Of a stretch of 64,000 nt of DNA, positions 6,730-49,116 are shown piece after piece. Location: positions 20,092 through 84,091 of the forward strand of contig JAQVCV010000002.1 of assembly GCA_028689615.1 (NCBI GenBank), read 5' to 3'. The notes beneath the pieces are model-generated. The model searched no databases, was not told the DNA's origin, and saw only the letters and a list, made by a program, of their open reading frames with translations. This stretch comes from Bacteroidales bacterium (lineage in GTDB: Bacteria; Bacteroidota; Bacteroidia; Bacteroidales; TTA-H9). Both the position numbers and the translations under genes were made by a program. Numbering within the stretch: the stretch's first letter is position 1; the number at the start of each line of letters is the position of its first letter.

Positions 6730-6984
6730 ATGAACGAGACAAGCAGACAAGTTGAGATGTTCCTGAGCATCGCAGCCCTCTCTAAAACTGATCAGGAGAA
6801 AGTTATGGAAACGGTTCACAAACTTTCTGAAAACAAAAAAGCTGCATTAAAAAAAACCAATCCACGCCCAAAGGCAGGTTTTCTGAAGGGAGCCTTTCAG
6901 CCCCCGGTAGAAGACGTTGTTGAAACGTCGGCCGAAAACCCGGATCAAACCCAAAACATTACTGATACTCAAAGCGAATTATGA
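6730..6984 (+). CDS. putative antitoxin of a type II TA pair (small protein whose stop overlaps the PIN toxin start)
   Basis: Internal ATG at 6730 (MNETSRQVEMFLSIAALSKTDQEKVMETVHKLSE...). The ATGA overlap at 6981-6984 with the downstream PIN gene is the typical translational coupling of TA pairs. The product assignment rests on gene context only. Confidence 0.4.
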   Translation: MNETSRQVEMFLSIAALSKTDQEKVMETVHKLSENKKAALKKTNPRPKAGFLKGAFQPPVEDVVETSAENPDQTQNITDTQSEL

Positions 6985-7376
6985 AAATTTTACTTGACAC
7001 CCAAGTCTTTGTTTGGTTTGCAGAAGACGACCCCAGGCTGCCTAACGAGATGAAAAGAATCATCGAAAAGCCTTGGCATCAGGTCTGTGTAAGCTATGCC
7101 TCTTTTTGGAAAATCGCCCTGATGATTCAATCAGGCGAATTGCCTTCCTCACGACCGCTTGATCTGATTATGAACCAAACCATAAAAAGTGGCATCGAAA
7201 TCGTCCCACTAAAACTCGACCACATCAATAGGCTGGGATGGCTTCCACAGCATCACGATGAAACTTTTGAAAGAATGCTGGCCGCGCAAGCATTGGTTGA
7301 AAACATGATGATTGTTTCTGACAACCCGGTTTACAATACCTATGGTGCAGTAAGGCTTTGGAGCAATCCAAAATAG
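6981..7376 (+). CDS. PIN-domain ribonuclease toxin, VapC-like
   Basis: N-terminus MKILLDTQVFVWF... matches the PIN-domain motif (LLDTnV...) with the first acidic residue in place. Size is 131 aa. Overlaps the upstream small ORF. Confidence 0.65.
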   Translation: MKILLDTQVFVWFAEDDPRLPNEMKRIIEKPWHQVCVSYASFWKIALMIQSGELPSSRPLDLIMNQTIKSGIEIVPLKLDHINRLGWLPQHHDETFERMLAAQALVENMMIVSDNPVYNTYGAVRLWSNPK

Positions 7377-9049: not shown

Positions 9050-9703
9050 CTAACCTTTCAGATCAATAAACCGGTAGGCAACAGGGAACGGCACCCCTTT
9101 GAAATCCTCATGATACATTGGAGAAACCTGCTTCAGCACAGTATCATCACCACCATTCCCAGAGTTTTGTGAGTCGGCCACTACTAAGTTAAAAAAGTCC
9201 TGACTCATGACTATTCGATTGGGGCGGCCTTTTTGCATAAACCTGGCAGCCAAATCAATACCACGACCATAGTAATCGTTAGCCCCTTTCAGGAAAGTAA
9301 TGTTGTACACCTCATGGCTGTGATGAATTGCCACTTTACACTGCAAGAAATGGTCGGTAAGGGGATGGTTGCGTAAGTTATCGAGGGTGGCATAAATCTC
9401 GTGTAACAACGAGAGATACGAATTGATCCCTTGTTTTCGCGACAATTCTTCATCGGGAATGTAGAGCATGATTTCATCGCCAATCCCTTTCACGATATTG
9501 GTGGGGAAATCGTTGAGAAAGGAGATGAAATTGAAAGTGTTGTTAAGCATACGGCCCCAGGTTTCAATGCCTGTTCGGTATTTCAAATCGGTTGAATTAA
9601 TGATATCAATGAAAATACAAGTACCTGGGCAAACGGGTAAAGAGTTCAACTGCGACTCAAGCTCGGCTGATAACGGATTTTTGGAATGGATGAAGGTTGC
9701 CAT
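9050..9703 (-). CDS. class III nucleotidyl-cyclase homology domain (CHD) protein, stand-alone, non-canonical active site
   Basis: Aligns by eye to adenylyl/guanylyl cyclase catalytic domains. CIFIDIINSTDL resembles the FADIVGFT metal-Asp strand. KGIGDEIMLYIP resembles FIGDAVMAVFG (second metal Asp). KVAIHHSHEV resembles the RIGIHTG strand. YGRGIDLAARF resembles IGDTVNLAARL, but with Arg/Asp where canonical enzymes have the substrate-specifying Asp and the catalytic Asn. Confidence 0.55.
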   Translation of the reverse strand: MATFIHSKNPLSAELESQLNSLPVCPGTCIFIDIINSTDLKYRTGIETWGRMLNNTFNFISFLNDFPTNIVKGIGDEIMLYIPDEELSRKQGINSYLSLLHEIYATLDNLRNHPLTDHFLQCKVAIHHSHEVYNITFLKGANDYYGRGIDLAARFMQKGRPNRIVMSQDFFNLVVADSQNSGNGGDDTVLKQVSPMYHEDFKGVPFPVAYRFIDLKG

Positions 9704-9717
9704 AGGCAGAAGTTATG

Positions 9718-10068
9718 TCAATCTTTTGTCTGATCAAAAAAACCGAGAGCTTTCTCAACATCAGGGGCAATGTTGAAGATAGAAAGAAACCCCGAAATCT
9801 CGAAAACATTATGAATTGGAGCTTGCAAGCCACAAATGACCAGGGTGCCATTTTCGCTCTTCATTTTTTTAAGCATCATCAAAAATACACGAAGCCCTGA
9901 ACTGCTAACATAGTCCATTTGCGAACAATCGATTACCAATTGCCGTGTCCCTGTTGCGAATAATTGGTTCAGACATTCTTCAAGCGAAGGGTATGTTGTA
10001 GTATCGAGTCGTCCAAGAATGGCTACTGATTTGATTTTGTTTAAATCGGATGTAATTAATTGCATCAT
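9718..10068 (-). CDS. STAS-domain anti-sigma-factor antagonist (RsbV/SpoIIAA-like)
   Basis: 116 aa. The motif QLVIDCSQMDYVSSSGLRVFLMMLKK is typical of STAS/SpoIIAA proteins, with the serine in the phosphorylatable position. Gap of 1 nt to the upstream kinase gene. Confidence 0.75.
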   Translation of the reverse strand: MMQLITSDLNKIKSVAILGRLDTTTYPSLEECLNQLFATGTRQLVIDCSQMDYVSSSGLRVFLMMLKKMKSENGTLVICGLQAPIHNVFEISGFLSIFNIAPDVEKALGFFDQTKD

Positions 10069-10069
10069 T

Positions 10070-10519
10070 TTACAATTGTTGTGAGGAGCCCGTAGGCTGA
10101 TACCACAAAGTTAGTTTATTATTTTCATTCACCCTTTCATAGGTGATTCTTTTCATAAAGGTTTTGACGAAATGAATTCCGAGTCCGCCAATCTCTCGTT
10201 CTTCAGCTGGTTTATCAACAGAATCAGCATCAGGAGCCTGAAGAATGTTGAAGGGTTTTCCATCATCGGTCATCACAATGGTGATGAGGTCTGAGTCGTC
10301 GCGGGCGAAATCGAGTTGGATGAAATGGGGTAGTTTATCGGCATAACCATAGAATATAGTATTGGTAACCAACTCTTCTAAGGCAAGATTCATAGCAAAA
10401 AGGGCCTCATGGTCCAATGCCCACATCTGCGACAGTTCCTCCAGGAAAGTTTGCAATCTGAGCAGTTGCCTGGTGTCAGCAGGCAGCACAAGTGTCATAT
10501 TTTTAGATTGTTGTGCCAT
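10070..10519 (-). CDS. RsbW/SpoIIAB-like anti-sigma regulatory factor (HATPase_c serine protein kinase)
   Basis: 149 aa. N-box ALEELVTNTIFYGY and G-box EIGGLGIHFVKTFM are characteristic of the GHKL-type partner-switching kinases. Confidence 0.75.
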   Translation of the reverse strand: MAQQSKNMTLVLPADTRQLLRLQTFLEELSQMWALDHEALFAMNLALEELVTNTIFYGYADKLPHFIQLDFARDDSDLITIVMTDDGKPFNILQAPDADSVDKPAEEREIGGLGIHFVKTFMKRITYERVNENNKLTLWYQPTGSSQQL

Positions 10520-10522
10520 TTT

Positions 10523-12460
10523 TTATTTTTTATAATCTAAAAGCTGAAATACTAACAAAGTAATATCATCAGATTGAGGTGCAATGCCCACAAACTTTTT
10601 TGTTTGGCCATACACCTCGCTGATTATCTGTTTGGGAGGAGCCCCGTTACAAGCGCGTAGGGCTTCGATCAGTTGTTCATCGCCAAACAACTCTCCCTGT
10701 GAGTTCATAGCTTCAGTAACGCCATCGGTATAAAGAACCACGGAAGAACCTTTGCCAAGAACGACCGAACTACAGCCATACTTCATGTCGTCAAACAATC
10801 CGAGCGGAGTTCCATGAGTTTGAGGAAGCTGGCTGATTGCACCATTTGAATCGAGCATCCAAGGCCGGTTATGACCGGCGTTGCAATAATCAAGTTGCCC
10901 TGTTTTCAAATTAACAATTCCGATAAAGAATGTGACAAACATGGCATTATCGTTCTCGCGGCAAAGCTCGATATTGATGCTGCTGGTAATCTGACATGGT
11001 TTCATATCAGGAGCCGTGCGGGCGCGAAGCAAAGTACGCGTGATGGCCATAAGGAGCGAAGCCGGGATTCCTTTTCCTGAAACATCGCCAACGGCAAAAC
11101 ACAAATGAACATCATCGATGAAAAAGAAATCATAGAGATCGCCTCCAACCTCTCTGGCCGAATCGAGAACAGCATGGAGATCAATCTCGGGGTGATCGGC
11201 AAAAGGGGGAAACACCTTGGGGACAATCCCCTGCTGAATATCGCGGGCGATTTTCAGTTCACTCTCAATTTTCTCACGAGCCGCCGTGGCATCGCTTATG
11301 GCCGCAATATGAATCCGAAGATCAGTTTGCATTTTCCGAAATGAATTGGCCAAATCGGTTATCTCGTTGTGAAATGAAAACTGGGGCACCTTATGTTCCA
11401 GATTTCCACTTCCTATTTCATGGGCAGCTTCCGCAAGTTCTTTCACCGGATTGGTAAGGCGACGTGCAATAGCTGAAATCAACACCAGCAAAAGAAACAA
11501 ACCCGCTGCAGCTAACGCAATCATCAAACGCTGAAGCCTGTACACCGGAGCATACAACTCGTCTTTAGGTATAAGCACTGCAACACTCCATCCGCTGGCA
11601 GGGATGGGCATGTAGGTCATCAAATATTTATCCCCTTTGCGTGTAACGGGTTCAACTTCCTGATAACCCGAGCCACCGCTTATCATATCGCGGCCAGCTT
11701 CGCGTAAATAGGGTTGGTTGTACTCTTCGGCAAGTGTAAAAACTGTTTCATTGCTGATGAAATCCTTTACAGGATGGGTAATAAATGTTCCCTGCTTCGA
11801 CACCAGAAAGGCATATCCATGATCAAAAATCCTGATATCGCTTACCATCCGTGAAAGATACTGCAAATCAATATCGATGGTAACAATTGCCAAAATCTCC
11901 GGCTTTCCGTTTCTGACATGCCAAATAGGAGCAGAATAAGTGGCCATCATAATATTACCGGCATTTGCATCGAAGTAGGGTTCAGACCACAACGGTTGGT
12001 TGAGTTCCCTTGGGATTTGGTACCAATCGAGATAAAAGTAGTTGTAAGAATCGTTCCCTATTTGCATGAAGGAAACCGTATCGCCCGAATGGAATGCATA
12101 GGGGGCATAATAAAGCGAATCGCGAAAAAAACTGTAAGGTTCGTATGCTACACAGCATCCAAAAATTTCGGGATTGGCAAAGACAAGGGTTTTGATCCGC
12201 TCTTCCAATTGCATCTGGCTGATACCAGGTTGCTTTTCGAGCAAACGAGCCAGGTTAAAAGCTATCTCTTCTGCCCCTCTAAGCACCGATTCTATACGAT
12301 AAGCCGTTGATTGACTGATATAATACGATTCTCTCTTCATATTCTCAAGGGCATCCTTTCGCGACTCGGAAAGATTGAACAGGAAGATCACAACAAATGT
12401 AACTGAAACAGTAGTAAGAATATAAAGGCTGAGTTTAAACGAAAGGCTTTTGATTTTCAT
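10523..12460 (-). CDS. membrane sensor PP2C-type (SpoIIE/RsbU-like) serine phosphatase with periplasmic Cache-like domain and HAMP linker
   Basis: TM1 (LYILTTVSVTFVVIFLF). A periplasmic domain of about 280 aa. TM2 (MIALAAAGLFLLLVLISAI). HAMP-like segment (RRLTNPVKELAEAAHEIGSGNL). C-terminal PP2C motifs (GDVSGKG...FFIDDVHLCFAVGDVSGKG; YTDGVTEA). Confidence 0.8.
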   Translation of the reverse strand: MKIKSLSFKLSLYILTTVSVTFVVIFLFNLSESRKDALENMKRESYYISQSTAYRIESVLRGAEEIAFNLARLLEKQPGISQMQLEERIKTLVFANPEIFGCCVAYEPYSFFRDSLYYAPYAFHSGDTVSFMQIGNDSYNYFYLDWYQIPRELNQPLWSEPYFDANAGNIMMATYSAPIWHVRNGKPEILAIVTIDIDLQYLSRMVSDIRIFDHGYAFLVSKQGTFITHPVKDFISNETVFTLAEEYNQPYLREAGRDMISGGSGYQEVEPVTRKGDKYLMTYMPIPASGWSVAVLIPKDELYAPVYRLQRLMIALAAAGLFLLLVLISAIARRLTNPVKELAEAAHEIGSGNLEHKVPQFSFHNEITDLANSFRKMQTDLRIHIAAISDATAAREKIESELKIARDIQQGIVPKVFPPFADHPEIDLHAVLDSAREVGGDLYDFFFIDDVHLCFAVGDVSGKGIPASLLMAITRTLLRARTAPDMKPCQITSSINIELCRENDNAMFVTFFIGIVNLKTGQLDYCNAGHNRPWMLDSNGAISQLPQTHGTPLGLFDDMKYGCSSVVLGKGSSVVLYTDGVTEAMNSQGELFGDEQLIEALRACNGAPPKQIISEVYGQTKKFVGIAPQSDDITLLVFQLLDYKK

Positions 12461-12473
12461 CTCTCACTATCAT

Positions 12474-13460
12474 TTATAAAGAGTTTGACATGGGGCAAAA
12501 TTCGCTGAAAGGATGAAGACTTTTGATTTGCCCTTGTTCAAACAAAAGGTTGTTAACAAACTGGTAAACTTCGCGAGTCAACGGGGGGCACAAAACCGAA
12601 TTTTTATACATTAAATCCTTCATCCGGTTGAGCATCCAGCGCTGATGCGCTCTGTTGTATGGCACATGAGCCTGTTTCATCTGTTCGATCACCAAATCCA
12701 AAGCATTCTCCTGGTTTTTGAATGCCCAGTCCCAGCCTTTCATGGTGGCCCTAACAAACTTATTCACAACCTCCTTGTTTTGGGCAAGATACTGGCTGGT
12801 ACAATACAAGCCATCTTCTGGAACATCTAGTCCGTAATCGGCAAAGAAAAACACGTTCAATTCACTGGTATCGATCCCGGCAGCATACAATTGATGAAAC
12901 TCATTGTACCACATCACCGTTAATACATCTATTCCACCTTTTAAAAACAAACTGATGGTGGCATTGATAGGGACAATGCGTGATGGTTCAACCTGATGAA
13001 TTTTCAGGAAAGTACGCGGGAGCTCCTGAAATCCACTTCTCCATATACCAATTCGTTTGCCGTTCATATCAACAGGCCGTTCGATTCCACTGCCTTTGCG
13101 CATCACAAAAGCCAGAGCCGACCGTTGCGTAATCTGCGCCACGTTTACCAAGGGGATTCCGGCATCGCGGGCCTCAACAGCCCCCGAGAGGAAACCACTT
13201 ACAATTTGGGCTTCATTACTGAGCAAAGCATCGTAAACAGGTGCTCCGGGGCCTCCTGTTAAAATTTTCACATCCAACCCTTCTGCACTGTAGAAACCCA
13301 TTTTTTCCGCAGCATAATAGCCGGCAAATTGTGCCTGTGGCAACCAATGCGGTAAAAATGTCACAGCCGTTTGCTGTGCATCAACAGTTATAAACAAGAT
13401 TAATTGCAACAAAGCAGTACCCATTAACTTTGAATAACTTAACCTAAAAATTCCCGACAT
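12474..13460 (-). CDS. periplasmic NMT1/THI5-like (nitrate/sulfonate/bicarbonate ABC-type) substrate-binding protein
   Basis: Signal peptide. SsuA/NMT1-like fold signature (LPHWLPQAQFAGYYAAEKMGFY..GLDVKIL). No ABC permease or ATPase follows. Sits 13 nt upstream of the sensor phosphatase. Confidence 0.65.
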   Translation of the reverse strand: MSGIFRLSYSKLMGTALLQLILFITVDAQQTAVTFLPHWLPQAQFAGYYAAEKMGFYSAEGLDVKILTGGPGAPVYDALLSNEAQIVSGFLSGAVEARDAGIPLVNVAQITQRSALAFVMRKGSGIERPVDMNGKRIGIWRSGFQELPRTFLKIHQVEPSRIVPINATISLFLKGGIDVLTVMWYNEFHQLYAAGIDTSELNVFFFADYGLDVPEDGLYCTSQYLAQNKEVVNKFVRATMKGWDWAFKNQENALDLVIEQMKQAHVPYNRAHQRWMLNRMKDLMYKNSVLCPPLTREVYQFVNNLLFEQGQIKSLHPFSEFCPMSNSL

Positions 13461-13470
13461 GATTGGTGAC

Positions 13471-14499
13471 TTATTTTAGTTCTAAAATATCATTGCTGTA
13501 AAGCATTCCCTGCCCGGCCATAACAAACCTGAATCCGGGTATATGCAGCGACTTCAATTGATTTTCGATAATTAAGGTGTTGCTTCTTCCTGCAACCGGT
13601 TTAACATGAGTGATCACAAACAAAACCTTTTCCAGTTTTTTCTCAGGATGTTCACCCGGGATTAACTCTGTTAGATTTTGAATCTCACCGGCTAACAGTG
13701 AGGGAGTAAGATGCCCGAAGAGAAGGTTATCGGGACGGGGGGCGGGATAACTCACTTCAATCACAACAATCTCGAGTACCTGCTTCGCGATGAGAGGAGC
13801 AACCTCCTGCCATACATCCCTAAGGAGAGATGAAGACTCTTTGACATCGGCACCAGTATCACCAAAGTAAAGCATGTAATTGTTGCAGTGATTCAGGAGA
13901 AACGCTGACGAGCGCATACCGCCGTGGCTCAAAGGAAACTCAGTTACCACCACTCCCTGATCCCCTACCCTGGTTGGACACTTTTCAAAGATCTCAACAA
14001 ACCGGTACTTCCCTATCCGTGGAGATTCTCCCTGATCAGAAAAATTGGCCCAAACAGCATTGTTAAAAACATGTTTCTGCAACAAAAGCAAAGTAGAAGG
14101 TGATCCATAAACAGGTTTTGGGACATCGTCGGGCGAAACAGCCACCAGACCGGCAAAGTGATCAAAATGAGGGTGAGAAATCAGACAGGCTTCAATCCCT
14201 TCTTTGAGGGTCCAATCGAGCGGGGAGCGTGAACCATCAACGGGAAATCCGGAAAGCAGACCGTTAGCACAAGCCTTATCTATCCCGTGTGTCAACGAAC
14301 CAGCGTCGAGCAACAGGTAACGCTGGCAATCAGCCGGTTTAATAAGCCAGGCAGATAAATTGTTGTCAGTAATTCCTCCGTTACACCCCAGGGCAATTAC
14401 AGAAAACTGCTGGCCGGATGCAGGAAAAGCCAGCGCTAGAAGAACCAGGAAAGCACCTAACCTTTTGAAAAACGGATAATACACTGTAATATAAATCAT
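13471..14499 (-). CDS. secreted class II 3',5'-cyclic-nucleotide phosphodiesterase (CpdP-like, MBL fold)
   Basis: ATG at 14499 with signal peptide (LGAFLVLLALAFPASGQQ). HPHFDHFAGLVAVSPD matches the class-II cAMP phosphodiesterase signature H-x-H-L-D-H-x-x-G-x(4)-S-P. Starts 10 nt upstream of the solute-binding-protein gene. Confidence 0.6.
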   Translation of the reverse strand: MIYITVYYPFFKRLGAFLVLLALAFPASGQQFSVIALGCNGGITDNNLSAWLIKPADCQRYLLLDAGSLTHGIDKACANGLLSGFPVDGSRSPLDWTLKEGIEACLISHPHFDHFAGLVAVSPDDVPKPVYGSPSTLLLLQKHVFNNAVWANFSDQGESPRIGKYRFVEIFEKCPTRVGDQGVVVTEFPLSHGGMRSSAFLLNHCNNYMLYFGDTGADVKESSSLLRDVWQEVAPLIAKQVLEIVVIEVSYPAPRPDNLLFGHLTPSLLAGEIQNLTELIPGEHPEKKLEKVLFVITHVKPVAGRSNTLIIENQLKSLHIPGFRFVMAGQGMLYSNDILELK

Positions 14500-14607
14500 T
14501 ATACAAGAATCATAACAAAATCGGTTGAAAACTTTTATCCAAATTGTGAATAAGTTTTCCAAAAGTAAACTATTTTGATGTTAATTTTGCCATCCAAACT
14601 ATAACGG

Positions 14608-15756
14608 ATGCGAAGATTTCGATTTCTAATTGTTTTTTTACCTCTATACTTCTCGTCGTTACTGACGACCCTTTACCATACCGATTCCTCCCATTTTTCA
14701 CTCAACCAGATACACGCAAGTCTGGCCAACACCCCGCCGTTGGTTCCCGACGAGATGCAACTGGTTCAACAGCGAATGGAAAAAATCCTAAAAAAGCATC
14801 GGTTCAATGGTAGCATCGTTATATCGTTTAAGGGATTTCCCATCTATTCAAATGCTGTGGGGTTGGCTGATTTTTCACGCCGCGACAGCCTAACCACTCA
14901 GGCACCCTTTCAATTGGCAAGTGTAAGCAAATCGTTTACTGCAATGGCAGTCATGATTTTGAAGGAGCGCGGTTTGGTTCAGTTCGACGACACACTCACA
15001 ACACACATTCCCGAGTTCCCTTATAAAAACATCACCATCAGGCATTTGCTCAACCATACCTCAGGGTTACCCAATTACATGTATCTGGCCGACAAATATT
15101 GGCCAAAAGAACTGGAAATGAGCAATGAAGACATGCTAGAACTCCTTATCAGGCGCAAACAACCTCTCTATTTTAAACCTGGCAGTCGTTTCGACTACTC
15201 CAACACAGGATATGCCATACTTGCGTTGCTGGTTGAGAGAAAAGCAGGGATATCGTTTGGTGATTTCGCAAGAAAAAACATCTTTGAACCAATTGGGATG
15301 TTCCATACCTTTACTTACAACCCCGGATTGTTAGATACAATCGCAGTTCAGGTAAAAGGTTACCGTTATCCGGCACGGCGAGGCAACGAATACCCCAACG
15401 ACCCGGTAAACAACGTCCTGGGCGACAAAAGCATTTATTCCACTGCCGAAGATCTGGCCTTGTATGAGCGGGCGTGGGTAAGCCCTGTTCTGGTGAGCGA
15501 CAGCACTTTGCAAGAAGCCTACACCAAGCCTGTTCTGAAGAACAAGCGCGAAGTGAACTACGGTTTCGGCTGGCGGTTTAAAGAAGTAAACGGCAAAGAG
15601 GTGGTATTTCACAACGGACTGTGGCATGGCTTTACCTCAACCATCACAAGGTTTGTTGAATCAGATCTTACCGTTATTGTGCTCACCAATACCAGCTCAA
15701 AAGTAGGCTCGATAGTATTTGACGTTGCCCGAGATTTTGATGGCATCCTGCTCTAA
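14608..15756 (+). CDS. serine hydrolase, beta-lactamase (class C/penicillin-binding-protein) family
   Basis: S-x-x-K motif (FQLASVSKSF). YSN motif (FDYSNTGY). HxG-like motif (WHGF) near the C-terminus. Confidence 0.8.
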   Translation: MRRFRFLIVFLPLYFSSLLTTLYHTDSSHFSLNQIHASLANTPPLVPDEMQLVQQRMEKILKKHRFNGSIVISFKGFPIYSNAVGLADFSRRDSLTTQAPFQLASVSKSFTAMAVMILKERGLVQFDDTLTTHIPEFPYKNITIRHLLNHTSGLPNYMYLADKYWPKELEMSNEDMLELLIRRKQPLYFKPGSRFDYSNTGYAILALLVERKAGISFGDFARKNIFEPIGMFHTFTYNPGLLDTIAVQVKGYRYPARRGNEYPNDPVNNVLGDKSIYSTAEDLALYERAWVSPVLVSDSTLQEAYTKPVLKNKREVNYGFGWRFKEVNGKEVVFHNGLWHGFTSTITRFVESDLTVIVLTNTSSKVGSIVFDVARDFDGILL

Positions 15757-19899: not shown

Positions 19900-22017
19900 C
19901 TATTTCACGATGACTTTCTTGGTAAATGTTCCCCTGTCGCCAGTGATGTTGAGGAAGTAAATACCACGAGCCAGGTTGGATACATTGATCTTGGCTTCAT
20001 AACGACCCACGAAAGCATTTACCAGGTCGTTATAAACTGTTTCTCCGGTAAGGTCAACCAGCTTGATCTGAAAAGTTTGCGCTTTATCAACATCAAAGGC
20101 AAGATTGAAAGAAGTTTGAGCCGGATTGGGCCACAACTGGAACCCACTTAACAACTCGCGTGATTCAACTCCCACGTTGAGTGTTTCCCAATGAATCTGC
20201 CAACCGTTGTTTTGTTTCCAATCGTTGGTACGCCACATCAGATAAGCTTTACCTCCGGGCACAGTGATGGGCGAAGGAGGAGTAGCATAAGTTCCACTTA
20301 AGGTTGCTATGGTCGTATTGGTAGAATTGTTGTTGATTCTCAAATAATCGTTTTCTGCCTCTGTATCAAAATAATCAAAATAGAGAGTAATTTCAGACGC
20401 GAAAGTAGGCTGAATCTTGAAAAAACAACTGGTATTGTATTTATAGTTGAAATCGCCACTACCATCGTTCAACACACCAGTGACATCTGTAAAGGTCTTG
20501 GTTCCGGTGCAGAACATTGGCAATACTGAAGTGTATTCAAAAAGGAAGCCATTCCCTGCTGACGATCCGTCAGAAGTAAAATGAACCAAAGCTTTGTTAC
20601 CAGTGGTAGTAACGTCGGTTGGAGGGTTGGAGGCGTTAAACTCAGCAAGAAGCGGGGCATTAACATCAGCACCATCGTAAATTTTCACCACGTCGCCGGC
20701 ACCTAGTTCAAAACGTTTGCTGGTGATCATAATTTTGACTACCGAATCTTGTTGTTGGGGATTGATAAGCCATTTATAATCAATATTAGAAGCATAGTCA
20801 GCAACAGGGCCGCTACCATCCTCTATCGTTCCATCGAGGAAAGTCATTTCGTTTACAGCAAGCGGAGCAACCGGGTAACCTGTTCCGGGAACAATTTGAT
20901 AAACCATTGCCTGACCGTTGTAAAATCCACCCACGTTTGAAAGTGTGTACCAACCATCACCAGAAGAACTCCAGCCAAAATTGAAATAATAGTTGGTAGG
21001 GGTGTTATCGTCATAACCACAGAGCACGAAAGCATGTCCACCATTGCTGGCATCACGTCCCGAATAGAAAATAGGACGTCCCAGATCGAGGTCGGCTTTG
21101 ATCTTGCTCTCCCAAACTGATTGCGAAAAATTCTGTTTTTCGAGGTAGGTAGTAGAATTAGAATACCGGAAATAGTTCACCATAGCGTTGGGCACGTTGT
21201 AAGAAAAAGCACCCGAGCCATCAGGAGCATAATCCATACGAACCGACACACCTGCATGAAACTGCAACTCAGCATCGTAATAATTGTATTTGGAATCGCT
21301 GTTGTGAAGCATTCCTTCAAAATGGTAATCGGTCTGACCGTAATTAGCCGAAAGGGTTCCGTAATTAATATGGTAATAGGACGACGAGCCCTGTCCGGTG
21401 TTGGGCCAACGCCAGTAATACATCACCTGACTCATGGCTGTGGCTACACAACCGGAATAAACGTGTCCGCCCGGACCTGCTTCATCTTCGGGGCAATGGT
21501 AATTGTAAGGGTCGTCCTGATTCCAGGTTCCTATAAGCAATGGCTGAACCCCTTTTGCTCCATTTTTGGGGAGCTGGGTATTTTGGCGCAAAGCATTCCA
21601 ATTCTGGGCTATTTCAGAAGTTTGTTCGATTGGATTTTGCCTCAGAAAATCGATCTGATCGGTATAATTCTGGAGAAAACTTCTGTAATTATCCGAAATT
21701 CTTGATGGATTGTATTGCCCATGAGTTGAATAGCCAATAACAGGAACGTAGGTGTCTTCGGCAGAAAAAAGGATGAACCCACCCTCGCTAAAATTGAAAA
21801 TGTAATAAGCATCACCGGTTTGCCCTTTGATTGTGAATTGCTCACCAATTCGCAGATTTTCTGCCGGAACACCGGTGTTTTGCGAATAATACCTGACAGC
21901 CAGAGATTTAGCGTCGTCAACCTCAACTTTAGAGGCTGATATCCCCAGCGAGAGAAATGCCAGAGAAACTAAAAGTAGAAATCTGTTCTTCATGAATTTT
22001 GAAATGTATGTTATCAA
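19900..22017 (-). CDS. secreted peptidase C10 (streptopain/PrtT-like) cysteine protease with T9SS C-terminal sorting domain
   Basis: Signal peptide. N-terminal Spi-like prodomain region. Catalytic Cys context SGCVATAMSQVMYYWRWP. Catalytic His context GGHAFVLCGYDD. C-terminal ~80 aa (LWPNPAQTSFNLAF...GIYFLNITGDRGTFTKKVIVK) matches the type-A CTD of Por/T9SS cargo. Confidence 0.8.
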   Translation of the reverse strand: MITYISKFMKNRFLLLVSLAFLSLGISASKVEVDDAKSLAVRYYSQNTGVPAENLRIGEQFTIKGQTGDAYYIFNFSEGGFILFSAEDTYVPVIGYSTHGQYNPSRISDNYRSFLQNYTDQIDFLRQNPIEQTSEIAQNWNALRQNTQLPKNGAKGVQPLLIGTWNQDDPYNYHCPEDEAGPGGHVYSGCVATAMSQVMYYWRWPNTGQGSSSYYHINYGTLSANYGQTDYHFEGMLHNSDSKYNYYDAELQFHAGVSVRMDYAPDGSGAFSYNVPNAMVNYFRYSNSTTYLEKQNFSQSVWESKIKADLDLGRPIFYSGRDASNGGHAFVLCGYDDNTPTNYYFNFGWSSSGDGWYTLSNVGGFYNGQAMVYQIVPGTGYPVAPLAVNEMTFLDGTIEDGSGPVADYASNIDYKWLINPQQQDSVVKIMITSKRFELGAGDVVKIYDGADVNAPLLAEFNASNPPTDVTTTGNKALVHFTSDGSSAGNGFLFEYTSVLPMFCTGTKTFTDVTGVLNDGSGDFNYKYNTSCFFKIQPTFASEITLYFDYFDTEAENDYLRINNNSTNTTIATLSGTYATPPSPITVPGGKAYLMWRTNDWKQNNGWQIHWETLNVGVESRELLSGFQLWPNPAQTSFNLAFDVDKAQTFQIKLVDLTGETVYNDLVNAFVGRYEAKINVSNLARGIYFLNITGDRGTFTKKVIVK

Positions 22018-25398: not shown

Positions 25399-26421
25399 CT
25401 ATCGATTCCTTGGCTTATAGGCAGACTGCCTCAAAAACTCTTGTCCTTCAGGCATTTTAAACAATTGTGAGGGCATTACCCCCGTATTTTTTTCCAGAAA
25501 CGAACTAACTATCTGGTAGCCCACCCATTCACCTATCCGGGATGGTGAAGATTTATCAAGCCCTGAAGTGAATGGTCCGTCACTCATTATAGTCCTGACA
25601 ACAGCCGGGTCGGATGAAAAAAGATAATCCTTCTCGATGAGCATGGCCCATATATGGGTTTCGTTCATGCTGCACCAATCCAATTGCTCCTTTGTGTAGC
25701 GAAAAAGGGACCAGGGCTTGGCTTGAGGTAACACAAACTCGAGCAAAGCCTGAATTTTGCCAGCCTCTATCATCTGATCAACCAAGGGTTTTTGTGTAAC
25801 ATCTTTCCAGAAATAAAAGAAAAGAATCTGTCGGATTACCTCAGGAACAACATCTTCGGGAGTCATGTTTCGCTGGATGTAAGCAGGTATCTTCAGTTGA
25901 TTGTAAGCTTCAAAACCACTTCCCAGAAAGAGATCCAGAGGAATTATAACAACACTGTCGTTTACGAACACACCTGTTTGAGTGTCGAAACCAGACACAT
26001 AGGTAAAAACCTGGGGAACGCGAAATTCGGGTATCGCTACCTGCAAACGCTGAAATGCTTTTGAAAGTTCAACTTCGCATCCCGACATATCGGTAAAGGT
26101 TTTCTCAACTGCATCGAAACCATCCCTGATTACAGGATCGCTCAAATAAGCTTTCATTTGAATCAGAGCCTGCTCACTTCCATAATCCGACCCTATGAAA
26201 AGCGGGTACCTTGGAGCCAGGCCGGCCAAACCTTCTTCCAGCTTGTTGGTTGGGATTTGGAACAGATCAAGCTCATAACGCAATATAACAACCTCTGGCT
26301 TGAAGGTTTTTGAAAAATCAACCGACTGCCAATGAGACTCTTTCTGGCGGCATGAAAACTGAAAAATCATCAATGATGCCACCACGATGCTGATTACACT
26401 TCCGGCTCTGAATGCTTTCAT
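25399..26421 (-). CDS. hypothetical lipoprotein
   Basis: Lipobox (MIFQFSC). About 340 aa. No recognised catalytic motif. Confidence 0.4.
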   Translation of the reverse strand: MKAFRAGSVISIVVASLMIFQFSCRQKESHWQSVDFSKTFKPEVVILRYELDLFQIPTNKLEEGLAGLAPRYPLFIGSDYGSEQALIQMKAYLSDPVIRDGFDAVEKTFTDMSGCEVELSKAFQRLQVAIPEFRVPQVFTYVSGFDTQTGVFVNDSVVIIPLDLFLGSGFEAYNQLKIPAYIQRNMTPEDVVPEVIRQILFFYFWKDVTQKPLVDQMIEAGKIQALLEFVLPQAKPWSLFRYTKEQLDWCSMNETHIWAMLIEKDYLFSSDPAVVRTIMSDGPFTSGLDKSSPSRIGEWVGYQIVSSFLEKNTGVMPSQLFKMPEGQEFLRQSAYKPRNR

Positions 26422-45565: not shown

Positions 45566-47572
45566 ATGGAAATCTATAACGGGAAATTGTGCATAACCGG
45601 TACTGAGTTAATTAAGTGCGAGGATAACACAGAGGGTGTGCTTACGTTGCCGAATTATAAATATCTAAAGAGTAATTGTAAACTCAAAGTCCTTCGCCGC
45701 GCTTCCTATGGCACTCCCGCCCTCATAGAGTTCGACAGCATGCCCGATAAGTACAAGCAAGAGTGGATCCGTTTGCACGGCGATCCGCGTAAGCTGCCCG
45801 AGATCGACCCGTGGCTGCGCTCCATCAAGCCCGACTCTGCCGCTTACACCTTCTACAGCCGCTACCGGCTGCCCGACGGGCGACCACTCCCTCCCGAAAA
45901 CATACAGCAGTATTGCGACGATGCCGCCGTGCTCAATGCCCTTCACGAACGCATCACCTCGCTACAGCGCAAGCGCAGCAGCATAGGGCTGACCACAACA
46001 GGCATCTGGCCCCTGGCGGCAGAGCTGGTGTTCAAGGCGCGCCTCCAATGGAAACACAAACTGCCCGAAAACGAGCTGCGCCTGCGCGATAAATACAAGA
46101 GGTATCACGAGGAGGGTTATCTGGCACTGGTGAGCAACAAGTTTGGCAACAGCAATTCGCGCAAGGTAACCTCCGAGATGGAGCGCCTGATCCTGTCGTT
46201 GTATTGCCGCCCCGAAAAACCGTATGTGGCCACCGTTCACCTCGATTACCTGCAATTTTTGGCGGGCAACATCGAGGTGGTCGATTTCAAAACCGGCGAA
46301 ATATTCTCGCCTGCCGATTTCATCAACGACGATGGCACCCCCATCACCGTGTCGGAAGGCACCATAGCCAACATCGTGAACGACCCGCGCAACAAACCGG
46401 TGGTGGGTAAGCTTCGCAACGGTGCCATGACTTACAACAACGAGCACCGGCCCCACCACCACCGCCACAGCCCCGTGTTTGCCCTGTCGAAAATATCGAT
46501 GGACGACCGCGACCTGCCGCGCAAGCTTCACGATGGCTCCCGCGTGAAGGCCTACTATGCCTACGATGTGGCATCGGGTGCCATAGTGGGAGCAGCCTAC
46601 TCGCGCAAGAAGAACCGGTCGCTGTTCGTTGATTGCATGCGCGATATGCTTCGCCGCCTCGATGGCATGGGCATGGGGCTGCCGCTTGAGGTTGAGGTGG
46701 AGCACCATTTGGTAAACGAGTTTGCCGACGACCTGATGAAGGCCGGCGTGGTGTTCCCGTTCGTGCGCTGGTGCAACCCCGGTAACTCGCAAGAGAAGCG
46801 TGCAGAGCATTTCAACAAAGAGAAGAAATATGGCTACGAGAAACGCTACCAGGAAGGCATTGGCCGCTGGTATGCCAAACGCGAGGCCAACCGCACCCGT
46901 AGCGAGAAGGTGTTCGACGAAAACAACGACACCTACCGCGAAAAAACCTACTCGTATGAGCAACTGGTTGCGGAAGACTTGCAGACGGTGGAGCTTTACA
47001 ACTCCGACAAGCGCAAAGGGCGCGATGTGTCGCGAATTGACTACCTGCGCGCCAACGTGAACCCCGGCGTGCTCACCACCATAGACCGCCCGCTGCTGGC
47101 GCGCTACATTGGCGAACGCACCGATTGTTCGGTGGTGCGCAACCAGTATGTGAAGGTGCAATATGGCAAATACGGTTTGCCATCGCCCGAGATGGTCGAT
47201 AGGCTTGAGCCTGGCAACTATGCCGTGCAGGCTTTTTGGATGCCCGGTACCACCATTGGCGAGGTGTACCTTTACCAGGACGACACCTTCATCTGCACAG
47301 CCCGCCCGATGGCCGAATACAACGAAGCCACAGCCGAACAAACCGACGACGACCGCCGCATCTACACCGAACAGGCCAAATACGTGAGCCAGTACGATGC
47401 CCGCGTGCGACAGCGTGCCGCCGAGCTGGCCAGGGTGGTGGTTTTTGATAAGAAGAAAACCACCGAAACGCTTAGCCAGGCATCGGAAGAGGTGGTGATA
47501 AAAGATTTTGTGGAACAACCACTCGAAATGGATGCCGAATACTACCGCCAATTGGCAAAAAACAACCTTTAA
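45566..47572 (+). CDS. DDE transposase, Mu A-like (rve/integrase-core superfamily)
   Basis: 668 aa. Candidate D-D-E triad in typical spacing (SMDDRD ... YAYDVASGAIV ... EVEVEHHLVNE). N-terminal helix-rich DNA-binding region. Followed by a MuB-like ATPase. Confidence 0.7.
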   Translation: MEIYNGKLCITGTELIKCEDNTEGVLTLPNYKYLKSNCKLKVLRRASYGTPALIEFDSMPDKYKQEWIRLHGDPRKLPEIDPWLRSIKPDSAAYTFYSRYRLPDGRPLPPENIQQYCDDAAVLNALHERITSLQRKRSSIGLTTTGIWPLAAELVFKARLQWKHKLPENELRLRDKYKRYHEEGYLALVSNKFGNSNSRKVTSEMERLILSLYCRPEKPYVATVHLDYLQFLAGNIEVVDFKTGEIFSPADFINDDGTPITVSEGTIANIVNDPRNKPVVGKLRNGAMTYNNEHRPHHHRHSPVFALSKISMDDRDLPRKLHDGSRVKAYYAYDVASGAIVGAAYSRKKNRSLFVDCMRDMLRRLDGMGMGLPLEVEVEHHLVNEFADDLMKAGVVFPFVRWCNPGNSQEKRAEHFNKEKKYGYEKRYQEGIGRWYAKREANRTRSEKVFDENNDTYREKTYSYEQLVAEDLQTVELYNSDKRKGRDVSRIDYLRANVNPGVLTTIDRPLLARYIGERTDCSVVRNQYVKVQYGKYGLPSPEMVDRLEPGNYAVQAFWMPGTTIGEVYLYQDDTFICTARPMAEYNEATAEQTDDDRRIYTEQAKYVSQYDARVRQRAAELARVVVFDKKKTTETLSQASEEVVIKDFVEQPLEMDAEYYRQLAKNNL

Positions 47573-47585
47573 AAATCAATGCAAT

Positions 47586-48482
47586 ATGGTTACAACAGAA
47601 GTTAAGTCGAAGATCATGGCGGCCATGCACGAAGCCCGCCGCAATTTCAACGGATCGGCCTCGCGCTTTGCCGTTACACTTGGCATTTCGCCAGCTCAAT
47701 ACAGCCGTGTGGCCAATGGCGACACCGAACACGTGCTATCTGACGCCAACTGGCTTTCGATTGCACGACGTCTTCAGGTAGAACTCAACCCTGCGGCCTC
47801 GTGGAAAGTGGCCAAGACGCCGGTTTACGAGTACATTTACACCCAGCTCACCCACTGCCAGATGCACAGCACATCGGGCTTGCTGTGCGATCTGCCCGAC
47901 ATTGGGAAAACGTTCACTGCAAAGCAGTACATCCGCGAAAACAAGAACGCTGTTTACATTGATTGTTCGCTGGTAAAAAGCAAGCAGCGCATGGTGCGCC
48001 AAATCGCCAAGGAGTTCGGGCTTGCACACCAGGGAAAGTACAGCGATGTGTTTGAAGACCTCATTTTCTTTCTCAAGGGCACTTCACACCCGGCACTCAT
48101 TGTGCTCGACGAGGCAGGCGACCTTTATTACGAAGCATTTTTGGAGCTAAAAGCCCTGTGGAACGCCACCGAACGCTCATGTGGCTGGTACATGATGGGA
48201 GCCGACGGCCTGCGCCACAAGATTGAGCTGGCCATAGAGCACAAGCGGGTGGGTTATGCCGAGTTGTTCAGCCGGTTCGGGTCGCGCTATGGGCGCATCA
48301 CCCCCGCCACAGCCGAGGAGTTGAAGCAGTTCAGGATGCTGCAGGGCAAGATGGTGGTTGATGTAAACTACCTCGCCGATATGAGCACACCAGGCCCCGA
48401 GTATATGCGCCAGGTGCTTGCCCGCACCGACATGTCGCTGCGCCGCATCTACACCGAGATCAAGAAAGTAAGCATAGCGTAA
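47586..48482 (+). CDS. MuB/TniB-like AAA+ transposition ATPase with N-terminal HTH
   Basis: ATG at 47586. HTH (AVTLGISPAQYSRVANG). Walker A (DLPDIGKTF). Walker B (ALIVLDEAGDL). Positioned immediately after the transposase. Confidence 0.6.
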   Translation: MVTTEVKSKIMAAMHEARRNFNGSASRFAVTLGISPAQYSRVANGDTEHVLSDANWLSIARRLQVELNPAASWKVAKTPVYEYIYTQLTHCQMHSTSGLLCDLPDIGKTFTAKQYIRENKNAVYIDCSLVKSKQRMVRQIAKEFGLAHQGKYSDVFEDLIFFLKGTSHPALIVLDEAGDLYYEAFLELKALWNATERSCGWYMMGADGLRHKIELAIEHKRVGYAELFSRFGSRYGRITPATAEELKQFRMLQGKMVVDVNYLADMSTPGPEYMRQVLARTDMSLRRIYTEIKKVSIA

Positions 48483-48492
48483 ACTGTAATTA

Positions 48493-49116
48493 ATGGCAAG
48501 GGCATTCACTATGTCAGAATTGATAAACAGGCGCTACGACGAGATTCAGTTACCCGGCAAGCTGGGCGACCTGGTAGGCTGCCCCGAGTTGTCGGGAAAC
48601 TGGATTATATGGGGCCCCTCTGGCAACGGCAAAACATCGTTCGTGCTTCAATTGCTCAAGGCTTTTGCACAGGCCGGCATCAAGTGCATCTACAACTCAC
48701 TTGAGGAGGGCGATGGCAAAACGCTACAGGCCGCCGCCATTCGCGAGGGTATGGGCGAGGTTTCGGACAAGATACTCGCCCTGCGGCGTGAACCCATCGA
48801 CGATTTGAAGCTTCGGCTTCAGCGGCACAAAAGCCCGCGCGTAATAGTGGTCGACTCGCTGCAATATACTGGCATCAGTTACCCACAGTACAAGGCCCTG
48901 AAGGAAGAGTTTAGCAACAAGCTGTTCATCTGGGTGAGCCATGCCGACGGGCGTGAGCCAGCCAGCCGCACAGCCCGCACCATCCGCTACGACTGCGACG
49001 TGAAGATTCGTATTGAAGGCTTCGTTGCCTACGCCACGAGCCGCTACGGCGGTGGTAAACATTACGTGATCTCCGAGGAGAAAGCACTGGAGCTTAACGG
49101 GAAATTACCTGAATAG
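48493..49116 (+). CDS. RecA-superfamily P-loop ATPase (DnaB C-terminal/KaiC-like fold)
   Basis: Walker A GPSGNGKTSF. A hydrophobic strand plus acidic residue, VIVVDSLQY, resembling the DnaB/RadA Walker B region. Confidence 0.5.
   Translation: MARAFTMSELINRRYDEIQLPGKLGDLVGCPELSGNWIIWGPSGNGKTSFVLQLLKAFAQAGIKCIYNSLEEGDGKTLQAAAIREGMGEVSDKILALRREPIDDLKLRLQRHKSPRVIVVDSLQYTGISYPQYKALKEEFSNKLFIWVSHADGREPASRTARTIRYDCDVKIRIEGFVAYATSRYGGGKHYVISEEKALELNGKLPE

Follow-up and report, generated by a model that had tools for sequence, protein, structure and literature searches.

Within a 64,000-nucleotide stretch of a Bacteroidales bacterium genome (assembly GCA_028689615.1, contig JAQVCV010000002.1, positions 20,092 to 84,091; hereafter the window), six minus-strand genes at 9050-14562 encode a PP2C sensor phosphatase, an RsbW-like kinase, a STAS antagonist, and a stand-alone class-III cyclase-homology protein (CHD), together with two predicted exported proteins. 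The reading favored here, with moderate confidence, is that the phosphatase, the kinase, the STAS protein, and the mini class-III cyclase make up a partner switch that works independently of sigma factors and has second-messenger synthesis as its output. This idea was the core of the initial annotation of the sequence and is now well supported, short of proof, by conserved gene linkage, by a second CHD family with the same pairing, and by the predicted fold. The six genes are as follows.

9050..9703, minus strand: stand-alone class-III cyclase-homology protein (CHD), 217 aa, the proposed output enzyme
9718..10068, minus strand: single-domain STAS protein of the anti-sigma-antagonist type, 116 aa
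10070..10519, minus strand: RsbW/SpoIIAB-like serine kinase (HATPase_c_2), 149 aa
10523..12460, minus strand: membrane sensor phosphatase with the order transmembrane segment (TM)-dCache-TM-HAMP-PP2C (SpoIIE), 645 aa
12474..13460, minus strand: NMT1/THI5-type solute-binding protein, predicted exported, 328 aa
13471..14499, minus strand: class-II 3',5'-cyclic nucleotide monophosphate (cNMP) phosphodiesterase, predicted exported; the open reading frame (ORF) call reaches a TTG at 14562

According to the ORF listing, the gaps between the six ORFs are 14, 1, 3, 13, and 10 nt, which agrees with the spacing of 14 nt or less described initially and suggests co-transcription. All six domain labels given at that stage passed the Pfam gathering thresholds, and the same six genes occurred in the same order on a 98%-identical contig from another assembly (L081). 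The initial annotation had also stressed the lack of a sigma factor. None was found in the six-gene operon by the ORF list and Pfam, among the Pfam-scanned ORFs of at least 150 aa between approximately 19.9 and 49 kb of the window, or in the annotation of the near-identical contig L081, which spans the left flank.

The three switch proteins look fully functional, judging from their motifs. Pfam identified dCache_1, MCP-like_PDC_1, HAMP, and SpoIIE (PF07228, E=6e-50) domains in the phosphatase, arranged as an N-terminal TM, a periplasmic dCache, a second TM, HAMP, and PP2C, and its metal-binding aspartate motifs GGDLYDF, GDVSGKG, YTDG, and DDIT were conserved in 37 orthologues. The kinase matched HATPase_c_2 (PF13581) with 75.6 bits, and its N box LEELxTN, its DDGKxF motif, and its G2 box GGLGIHFVK are present and conserved. 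Matches to the SpoIIAB and RsbW equivalogs were weak and far under the cutoffs; the kinase is best classed as a member of the RsbW-like family and not as an orthologue. In approximately 19 relatives it forms the C-terminal part of a fusion with the PP2C protein. The STAS protein matched PF01740 with 71.6 bits and TIGR00377 with 74.8 bits (cutoff 53.45). Its loop DYVSSSGLR was invariant or nearly so in 57 CHD-adjacent orthologues, with residues S55, S56, G58, L59, and R60 being invariant. Ser56 is the residue that we take to be the phospho-acceptor, after alignment by hand with Ser58 of SpoIIAA. The module thus holds a PP2C phosphatase with intact metal aspartates, a HATPase_c_2 kinase, and a STAS protein with a phosphorylatable serine, while a sigma factor as the switched partner was absent from the operon and the scanned parts of the window. 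By three of the four defining parts it would therefore qualify as a partner-switching system, the sigma factor being the missing one.

The 217-aa protein was assigned to Guanylate_cyc (PF00211) with 29.7 bits over a cutoff of 21.9. Its AlphaFold model, built with 18 homologues in the alignment, reached a pLDDT of 86.5 and a pTM of 0.85, and all 50 top Foldseek matches listed from the PDB were class-III adenylate/guanylate cyclases, among them CyaB (E=6e-11) and Ma1120 of Mycobacterium avium (4wp8; target TM-score 0.84). The structure search that had been proposed for this protein thus returned a confident cyclase fold. The family profile reached Ma1120, the nearest solved relative, at E=1.4e-9. 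Both are small and single-domain, carry the Lys/Asp pair, and do not have the canonical Asn, although identity is only approximately 16%.

Residue conservation in the CHD was traced down to approximately 22% identity. D33 and D76 align with the metal residues of Ma1120, so that both metal aspartates are kept; D76 was invariant in both alignments, and D33 was invariant in the 18 close members, with conservation of at least 90% across the wider set. K72 and D143, the ATP-type Lys/Asp pair, align with Ma1120 K101 and D157 and were invariant, as was R154, while K202 was mostly conserved and the FKG motif was kept. Four residues ahead of the Arg, where class-III cyclases have the transition-state Asn, both CHD families carry an invariant Asp (D150), and the canonical Asn-Arg pair is thus absent. 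Ma1120 carries Ala164, not Asp, at this position and is nevertheless an active adenylate cyclase, the activity of which is lowered by restoration of the Asn (PMC4215837). Since the Asn position is dispensable there, D150 is no argument against catalysis, although the chemistry may be another. Among the genes of the cassette the CHD gene was the most conserved. Out of 1.84 billion proteins, its profile reached only 259 cluster representatives, which are with few exceptions single-domain and 200-220 aa in length; the family is small, divergent, and isolated from mainstream cyclases.

Gene linkage was followed in 80 genomic loci encoding CHD family members, onto which the six window proteins were mapped and of which 75 had sufficient upstream sequence. 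ORFs in the fetched loci are greedy ORF calls. The relatives are almost all metagenome-assembled genomes (MAGs), a few taxon labels of which may reflect binning errors, and the closest genomes are uncultured Bacteroidales-type MAGs. Partner-switch genes were found directly upstream of the CHD gene in 61 of the 75 loci, and the STAS gene adjoined it in 55. The CHD gene is therefore not a sporadic neighbor of the module, as the suggested check of its neighborhood might have revealed. The arrangements found were as follows.

PP2C, RsbW, STAS, CHD: 18/75 loci
dCache-HAMP-PP2C-kinase fusion, STAS, CHD: 15/75 loci, plus 2 cut at the contig end (fusion confirmed)
RsbW, STAS, CHD: 10/75 loci
STAS and CHD only: 8/75 loci
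kinase directly before CHD, without STAS: 6/75 loci
divergent PP2C-kinase beside STAS-CHD: 2/75 loci
no module near CHD: 14/75 loci

Linked loci occurred in every branch of the CHD tree, and the linkage is therefore ancestral with scattered losses; the most distant family-1 representatives (P0128, P0143, and P0131) lie on short or uninformative contigs. The distance matrices of the four genes correlated with r = 0.71-0.88, which points to their co-inheritance. Given the periplasmic domain, the partial correlation was higher for CHD-STAS (0.48) than for CHD-RsbW (0.33), a hint that is suggestive only. The genes downstream of the CHD gene varied between a 6-pyruvoyl-tetrahydropterin synthase-like (QueD-like) protein, a ZIP transporter, and DUF5723, and neither an effector nor a sigma factor was conserved at this place in the fetched loci. 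The closest relatives of the window, L001 and L002, keep the phosphodiesterase, STAS, CHD, and DUF5723 genes and are without the binding protein, the phosphatase, and the kinase. A 330-nt non-coding spacer (approximately 9310-9640), which holds a conserved TAACTTTG box, replaces the three genes, and a search for remains of them in both loci returned no relics. In these genomes the STAS-CHD pair apparently functions, or is regulated, with no kinase or phosphatase encoded nearby.

The same pairing recurred in a second family from another phylum. In locus L136, a 250-aa protein without a Pfam match follows an RsbW-STAS pair (859-1611). It belongs to a family of approximately 270 aa (family 2, as opposed to family 1 of the window) with approximately 200 matches (202 at E <= 0.001), which have no Pfam assignment, are mostly annotated as hypothetical, and come mostly from MAGs of Gammaproteobacteria/Xanthomonadales. 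The motifs of the two families are the same, D..KxxGD..DxxGxx[IV]DxxxR..KG, including the change from Asn to Asp. The model of family 2 reached a pLDDT of 88.3, and all 50 top Foldseek matches listed were again class-III cyclases (CyaB, 3.9e-10). The family-1 profile matched the single L136 protein with 93.9% probability, while the profile-profile comparison between the families gave 18.8%. As this profile evidence is mixed, the relation of the two families rests on the shared motifs and the independently predicted fold. A STAS gene immediately preceded the family-2 gene in all six loci inspected, namely L136 and five further sampled ones, with a 4-bp overlap of the two genes in one of them. 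Upstream of the STAS gene, the five further loci differed.

L168: receiver-PP2C-kinase protein (HsbR architecture)
L170: giant ammonium-transporter-GAF-PAS-PP2C-kinase protein
one locus: HAMP-GAF-PAS-PP2C-kinase protein
one locus: cut, unannotated 680-residue protein
L173: none, STAS only

That the same STAS-CHD pairing persists with a differing sensor, CHD family, and phylum is the strongest argument for the CHD being the functional partner of the module, and it points to STAS as the protein in contact with the CHD.

In the mechanism proposed, a periplasmic ligand would be presented by the orphan NMT1-type protein, bound by the dCache domain, or both, and would alter the activity of the PP2C domain via HAMP. 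The phosphatase and the kinase would jointly set the phosphorylation of STAS Ser56. In one of its states, by analogy the unphosphorylated one, the mobile STAS protein would bind the 217-aa cyclase-fold protein and control the formation of the active homodimer. From the Lys72/Asp143 pair, the predicted substrate is ATP and the predicted product cAMP. STAS is preferred as the direct partner because it adjoins the CHD gene in 55/75 family-1 and 6/6 family-2 loci, because STAS-CHD pairs persist alone, because the membrane fusions of PP2C and kinase leave STAS as the sole diffusible element, and because HsbA-HsbD, BgrV-BgrR, and SiaC-SiaD work in this way.

Several observations weigh against this mechanism. 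There are the 14 of 75 CHD genes without a module nearby, and the five or six kinase-CHD loci without a STAS gene, which suit a kinase that binds the cyclase at least equally well. The invariant D150 in place of the canonical Asn makes both activity and product uncertain, and no cNMP receptor was found in the window. The module itself is, in addition, promiscuous in the genes that follow it, so that adjacency is weaker evidence than it would be with a dedicated module.

The alternative that draws most from these points is the classical wiring, in which a dimer of the RsbW-like kinase holds CHD monomers inactive until dephosphorylated STAS captures the kinase and the cyclase dimerizes. Sequestration by the kinase follows the canonical logic of RsbW/SpoIIAB, conserved motifs are present in the kinase, and a kinase gene, fused to PP2C or separate, directly precedes the CHD gene with no STAS gene between them in L036, L063, L066, L069, L076, and perhaps L033. 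However, STAS-CHD pairs without a local kinase are equally frequent in family 1 (L001, L002, L010, L019, L038, and L061) and also occur in family 2 (L173), and in family 2 it is STAS that touches the CHD gene in 6/6 loci. The kinase is moreover a domain of a membrane protein in approximately 19 loci, and the CHD-RsbW partial correlation is the lower of the two. We consider this wiring unlikely, although it deserves to be kept in view, and continue with STAS as the favored contact of the cyclase.

The linkage was also read in reverse, from the STAS protein, in 80 metagenomic loci, 57 of which had sufficient downstream sequence. A family-1 CHD gene came next after the STAS gene in 13 of the 57, and the STAS proteins of these CHD-linked loci are mainly those closest to the query. 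A sigma factor followed in one of the 57 only, L127, where an ECF sigma gene lies after a 266-nt gap. It had been pointed out beforehand that the proposal would fall if relatives routinely placed a sigma gene after the module and the CHD gene only sporadically; with sigma at 1/57 and the CHD linked in 61/75, the opposite pattern was observed. The module would then be a promiscuous cassette for which the CHD is one recurrent output.

This promiscuity feeds a further alternative, namely that the CHD gene is co-transcribed but is not the target, the module acting on a product encoded elsewhere (a sigma or anti-sigma factor, an enzyme, or a channel, for instance) and the cyclase being a parallel or feedback component. 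Related STAS modules do precede many genes, encoding a cNMP-gated K+ channel, an RsbW-GNAT protein, a binding-protein/permease fusion, a chemoreceptor (MCP), TssB, and the one ECF sigma factor; the CHD is next in only 13/57 STAS-centred loci, and the 64-kb window leaves room for targets in trans. Set against this, the CHD-centred linkage of 61/75 extends over the entire tree and is seen again, with other sensors, in a second family and phylum, STAS-CHD survives where the other module genes were lost, and downstream of the CHD gene no further gene is conserved, QueD-like, ZIP, and DUF5723 genes alternating there. Bacteroidota are also not known to have sigma factors of the SigB/SigF type. A module that bypasses its neighboring cyclase is therefore held to be improbable.

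Some of the loci reached from the STAS protein are described here in their own right. In L104, L106, L126, L131, and L148, a PP2C-RsbW-STAS module is followed by a K+ channel gene with Ion_trans and cNMP_binding domains (e.g., L106 6356-7732). The channel has 458 aa, a TTVGYGD filter, and a C-terminal cyclic-nucleotide-binding domain, and its gene lies on the same strand, usually approximately 10-50 nt past the STAS gene; the ORF call in L131 is shorter (374 aa) and starts approximately 280 nt after it. The STAS proteins of these channel-linked modules are 35-42% identical to that of the window, and the loci would tie partner switches to cyclic nucleotides in a second and different way. A protein of approximately 500 aa that joins an RsbW-like HATPase_c_2 domain to a GNAT acetyltransferase was found in L102 (6333-7838), L021 (8055-9566), and L030. 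Its gene sits after the STAS gene, or between the kinase and STAS genes, in some modules, and the protein may be an alternative or additional output. In L127 (6545-8029), a related NMT1-PP2C-STAS module is followed 266 nt downstream by the ECF sigma gene and then by genes for a 150-aa protein and a DUF6108 protein.

A different doubt concerns the chemistry of the cyclase-fold protein, which might be no cAMP synthase at all but an inactive adaptor or an enzyme with a different chemistry or substrate. D150 is invariant at the transition-state Asn position in both families, down to approximately 22% identity, the family is far from mainstream cyclases (259 representatives and a modest Pfam score), and weak matches to pyrimidine cyclases were obtained (PycC, E=8e-4; uridylate cyclase 8jsz, 6.6e-4). 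Pseudoenzymes, however, usually lose the metal, substrate-pair, and Arg residues, while here the metal aspartates, the Lys/Asp purine pair, the Arg, and the Lys-Gly motif are kept under strong purifying selection. Ma1120, with Ala at the Asn position, is active, and restoring the Asn lowers its activity (PMC4215837). A protein unable to make cAMP accordingly receives a low probability, and the predicted cAMP synthase is retained as the output. An anti-phage Pycsar-like cyclase placed by chance beside a regulatory module, which the weak PADLOC matches to PycC (E=8e-4 to 7e-3) might suggest, was rejected, since these matches are no better than generic cyclase-domain similarity, no cNMP-binding effector gene as in Pycsar lies next to the CHD gene, the downstream neighbors of which vary, vertical inheritance together with a sensory module throughout an order does not resemble defence islands, and none of the other five operon proteins matches a defence model.

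The two exported proteins are less firmly tied to the module. The signal peptides of both were judged by eye and hydropathy. The binding protein matched NMT1 (PF09084) with 149.6 bits, among solved structures it is closest to an uncharacterised binding protein (4nmy) and to ThiY (3ix1), which binds formylaminopyrimidine (FAMP), and signal peptides were present in all homologues checked. No transporter genes adjoin its gene. An NMT1 gene immediately precedes the PP2C gene in 10 of the loci centred on the CHD and in several of those centred on STAS, thus accompanying the phosphatase only in a subset of loci, and the binding protein is likely a co-sensor of the dCache phosphatase.

The phosphodiesterase matched PDEase_II (PF02112) with 137.6 bits over a cutoff of 23.7 and carries the metal motif HPHFDH of the HxHxDH type in its translation. 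Family and motif are shared with yeast PDE1 (4ojv), to which it aligned with E=1.1e-21, the alignment beginning right after an N-terminal extension; the link to a partner-switch operon, found in few genomes, sets it apart. The ATG at 14499 is the more likely start than the TTG at 14562, because the signal-peptide-like segment begins there and the PDE1 alignment starts right after this segment, which is conserved in the homologues of L001, L002, and L047. CpdP of Vibrio fischeri is a periplasmic class-II phosphodiesterase, and the window enzyme is predicted to be exported likewise. Only 3 of 80 relatives have its gene beside the module, in every case divergent from a beta-lactamase-family gene, and this divergent pair is kept in L001, L002, and the distant L047 whatever lies between the phosphodiesterase and the STAS gene. 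Because it is linked in 3/80 loci only and bears a signal peptide that would place it in another compartment, the enzyme is not counted to the core. It would be an accessory outside the cytoplasm and no brake on the cyclase pool, possibly a lineage-specific add-on that clears extracytoplasmic cNMP. The part of the initial annotation that wired cNMP degradation into the switch is therefore the weaker one, as an enzyme so located cannot reach the cytoplasmic pool of the cyclase.

Control elements of the operon were searched for by several routes. Scans for sigma-70 promoters and intrinsic terminators gave counts equal to the shuffled expectation, and Rfam and tRNA scans of the window found no RNA genes and, in the case of Rfam, no riboswitch ahead of the NMT1/THI5-like gene. 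Two motifs of the Bacteroidota type were noted.

14560..14567, minus strand: TACTTTTG, candidate Bacteroidota-type -7 promoter element, approximately 60 nt upstream of the phosphodiesterase ATG
10106..10113, minus strand: TAACTTTG, candidate internal promoter for STAS-CHD, within the 3' end of the kinase gene and 37 nt upstream of the STAS start

The first fits TAnnTTTG and sits in the divergent intergenic region of 45-108 nt. The second octamer also occurs approximately 50 nt upstream of the STAS gene in the 330-nt spacer of L001 and L002. Across the window TAnnTTTG appears at chance frequency, with 56 observed and 52 expected occurrences, and both elements are therefore only leads.

Downstream of the operon, a DUF5723 gene follows after 82 nt on the same strand. 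Just beyond it sit a PIN-domain toxin gene (6981-7376, plus strand) and, just upstream of the latter, a gene for an 84-aa partner, both annotated on contig L081 and probably forming a VapBC-type toxin-antitoxin pair. On the upstream side, a divergent serine beta-lactamase-family gene (14608-15756, plus strand) is followed by a Usp gene. Farther along, a Peptidase_C10 and CUB protein with a C-terminal sorting domain of the type IX secretion system is encoded at 19900-22017 and the gliding-motility lipoprotein GldB at 25399-26421, both on the minus strand; such cargo and GldB are markers of a Bacteroidota host with this secretion system. At 45566-49116 (plus strand), a 668-aa protein without a Pfam match is followed by an HTH_3 and AAA_22 protein and by a second AAA-type protein, an arrangement that to us resembles a Mu-type transposase and ATPase module.

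The classical sigma-controlling switches are RsbU/RsbV/RsbW-SigB and SpoIIE/SpoIIAA/SpoIIAB-SigF of Bacillus. The window module shares with them the three protein families and the conserved catalytic and phospho-acceptor motifs; they end in a sigma factor, whereas the conserved fourth gene here encodes a cyclase-fold protein. Closer in logic is SiaABCD of Pseudomonas aeruginosa, in which a HAMP-PP2C phosphatase and a kinase set the phosphorylation of SiaC, and unphosphorylated SiaC binds and activates the cyclase by promoting its active dimer (PMC7647112, PMC8457831). The four-gene logic is alike, and the best NCBIfam match of the window phosphatase is SiaA, although with 64.9 bits against a cutoff of 700 it is not a SiaA orthologue and the module is not a member of SiaABCD. 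The output of SiaABCD is a GGDEF diguanylate cyclase making c-di-GMP, in contrast to the class-III cyclase fold (PF00211) of the window, and SiaC is a DUF1987 protein phosphorylated at Thr68, in contrast to a true STAS protein with a Ser in a DSSG-type motif.

In HsbR-HsbA-HsbD of P. aeruginosa, a STAS antagonist under the control of a PP2C phosphatase and a kinase interacts with a nucleotide cyclase (PMC5085249), and an interaction of STAS antagonist and cyclase is likewise described, as cited in PMC8457831, for BgrU/W/V-BgrR of Sinorhizobium meliloti. Both systems have GGDEF enzymes as outputs, HsbA has an anti-sigma factor as a further target, and the input of the window module is a periplasmic dCache domain with a binding protein and not a phosphorelay. 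The HsbR architecture, receiver-PP2C-HATPase_c_2, is shared by the family-2 locus L168. The analogy to HsbR-HsbA-HsbD drawn initially is thus a fair one, while SiaABCD and BgrU/W/V-BgrR are closer in operon logic. The system appears to work like SiaABCD and HsbR-HsbA-HsbD and to belong to neither.

No report of a class-III cyclase under partner-switch or STAS control was found in the full-text literature, the coverage of which leaves out many subscription papers, and on class-III cyclases and cAMP in Bacteroidetes it yielded one unrelated review. Within that coverage, nothing was met that contradicts the earlier remark that a CHD-output version with an operon-encoded class-II phosphodiesterase is not known to have been characterized. 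Nothing connecting Ma1120 to a partner switch was encountered either, though no search was aimed at such a connection.

A broader reading, which is doubtful, is that partner-switch-gated mini-cyclases are widespread, unrecognised messenger synthases with STAS as allosteric subunit, to which an outside-in cNMP relay would be added here. In such a relay, the phosphodiesterase, the binding protein, and the dCache domain would together read extracellular cNMP or a breakdown product of it. The nearest solved relatives of the binding protein bind pyrimidine heterocycles, and the loop of cyclase, secreted phosphodiesterase, and receptor in Dictyostelium offers a loose comparison. The invariant Asp at the Asn position could likewise point to a non-canonical product.

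Partner switches are known to control sigma factors and, in a few proteobacteria, GGDEF diguanylate cyclases. If the favored mechanism is true, a third type of output would be added, extending the principle to messengers of the cAMP/cGMP type. It would also provide a regulatory rule for stand-alone mini-cyclases, which carry no sensory domain of their own, and a testable entry into cyclic-nucleotide signaling in Bacteroidota, an abundant phylum in which, as far as we are aware, cAMP and related signaling are barely explored. The system is small, and its three soluble proteins and a separately expressible phosphatase domain should reconstitute easily in vitro. Conserved, cross-phylum, and easy to test, it would be of interest to specialists in signaling without being categorically new. 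That the architecture recurs in two phyla and two remotely related cyclase families, combined with exchangeable sensors, suggests a general design and not a local curiosity.

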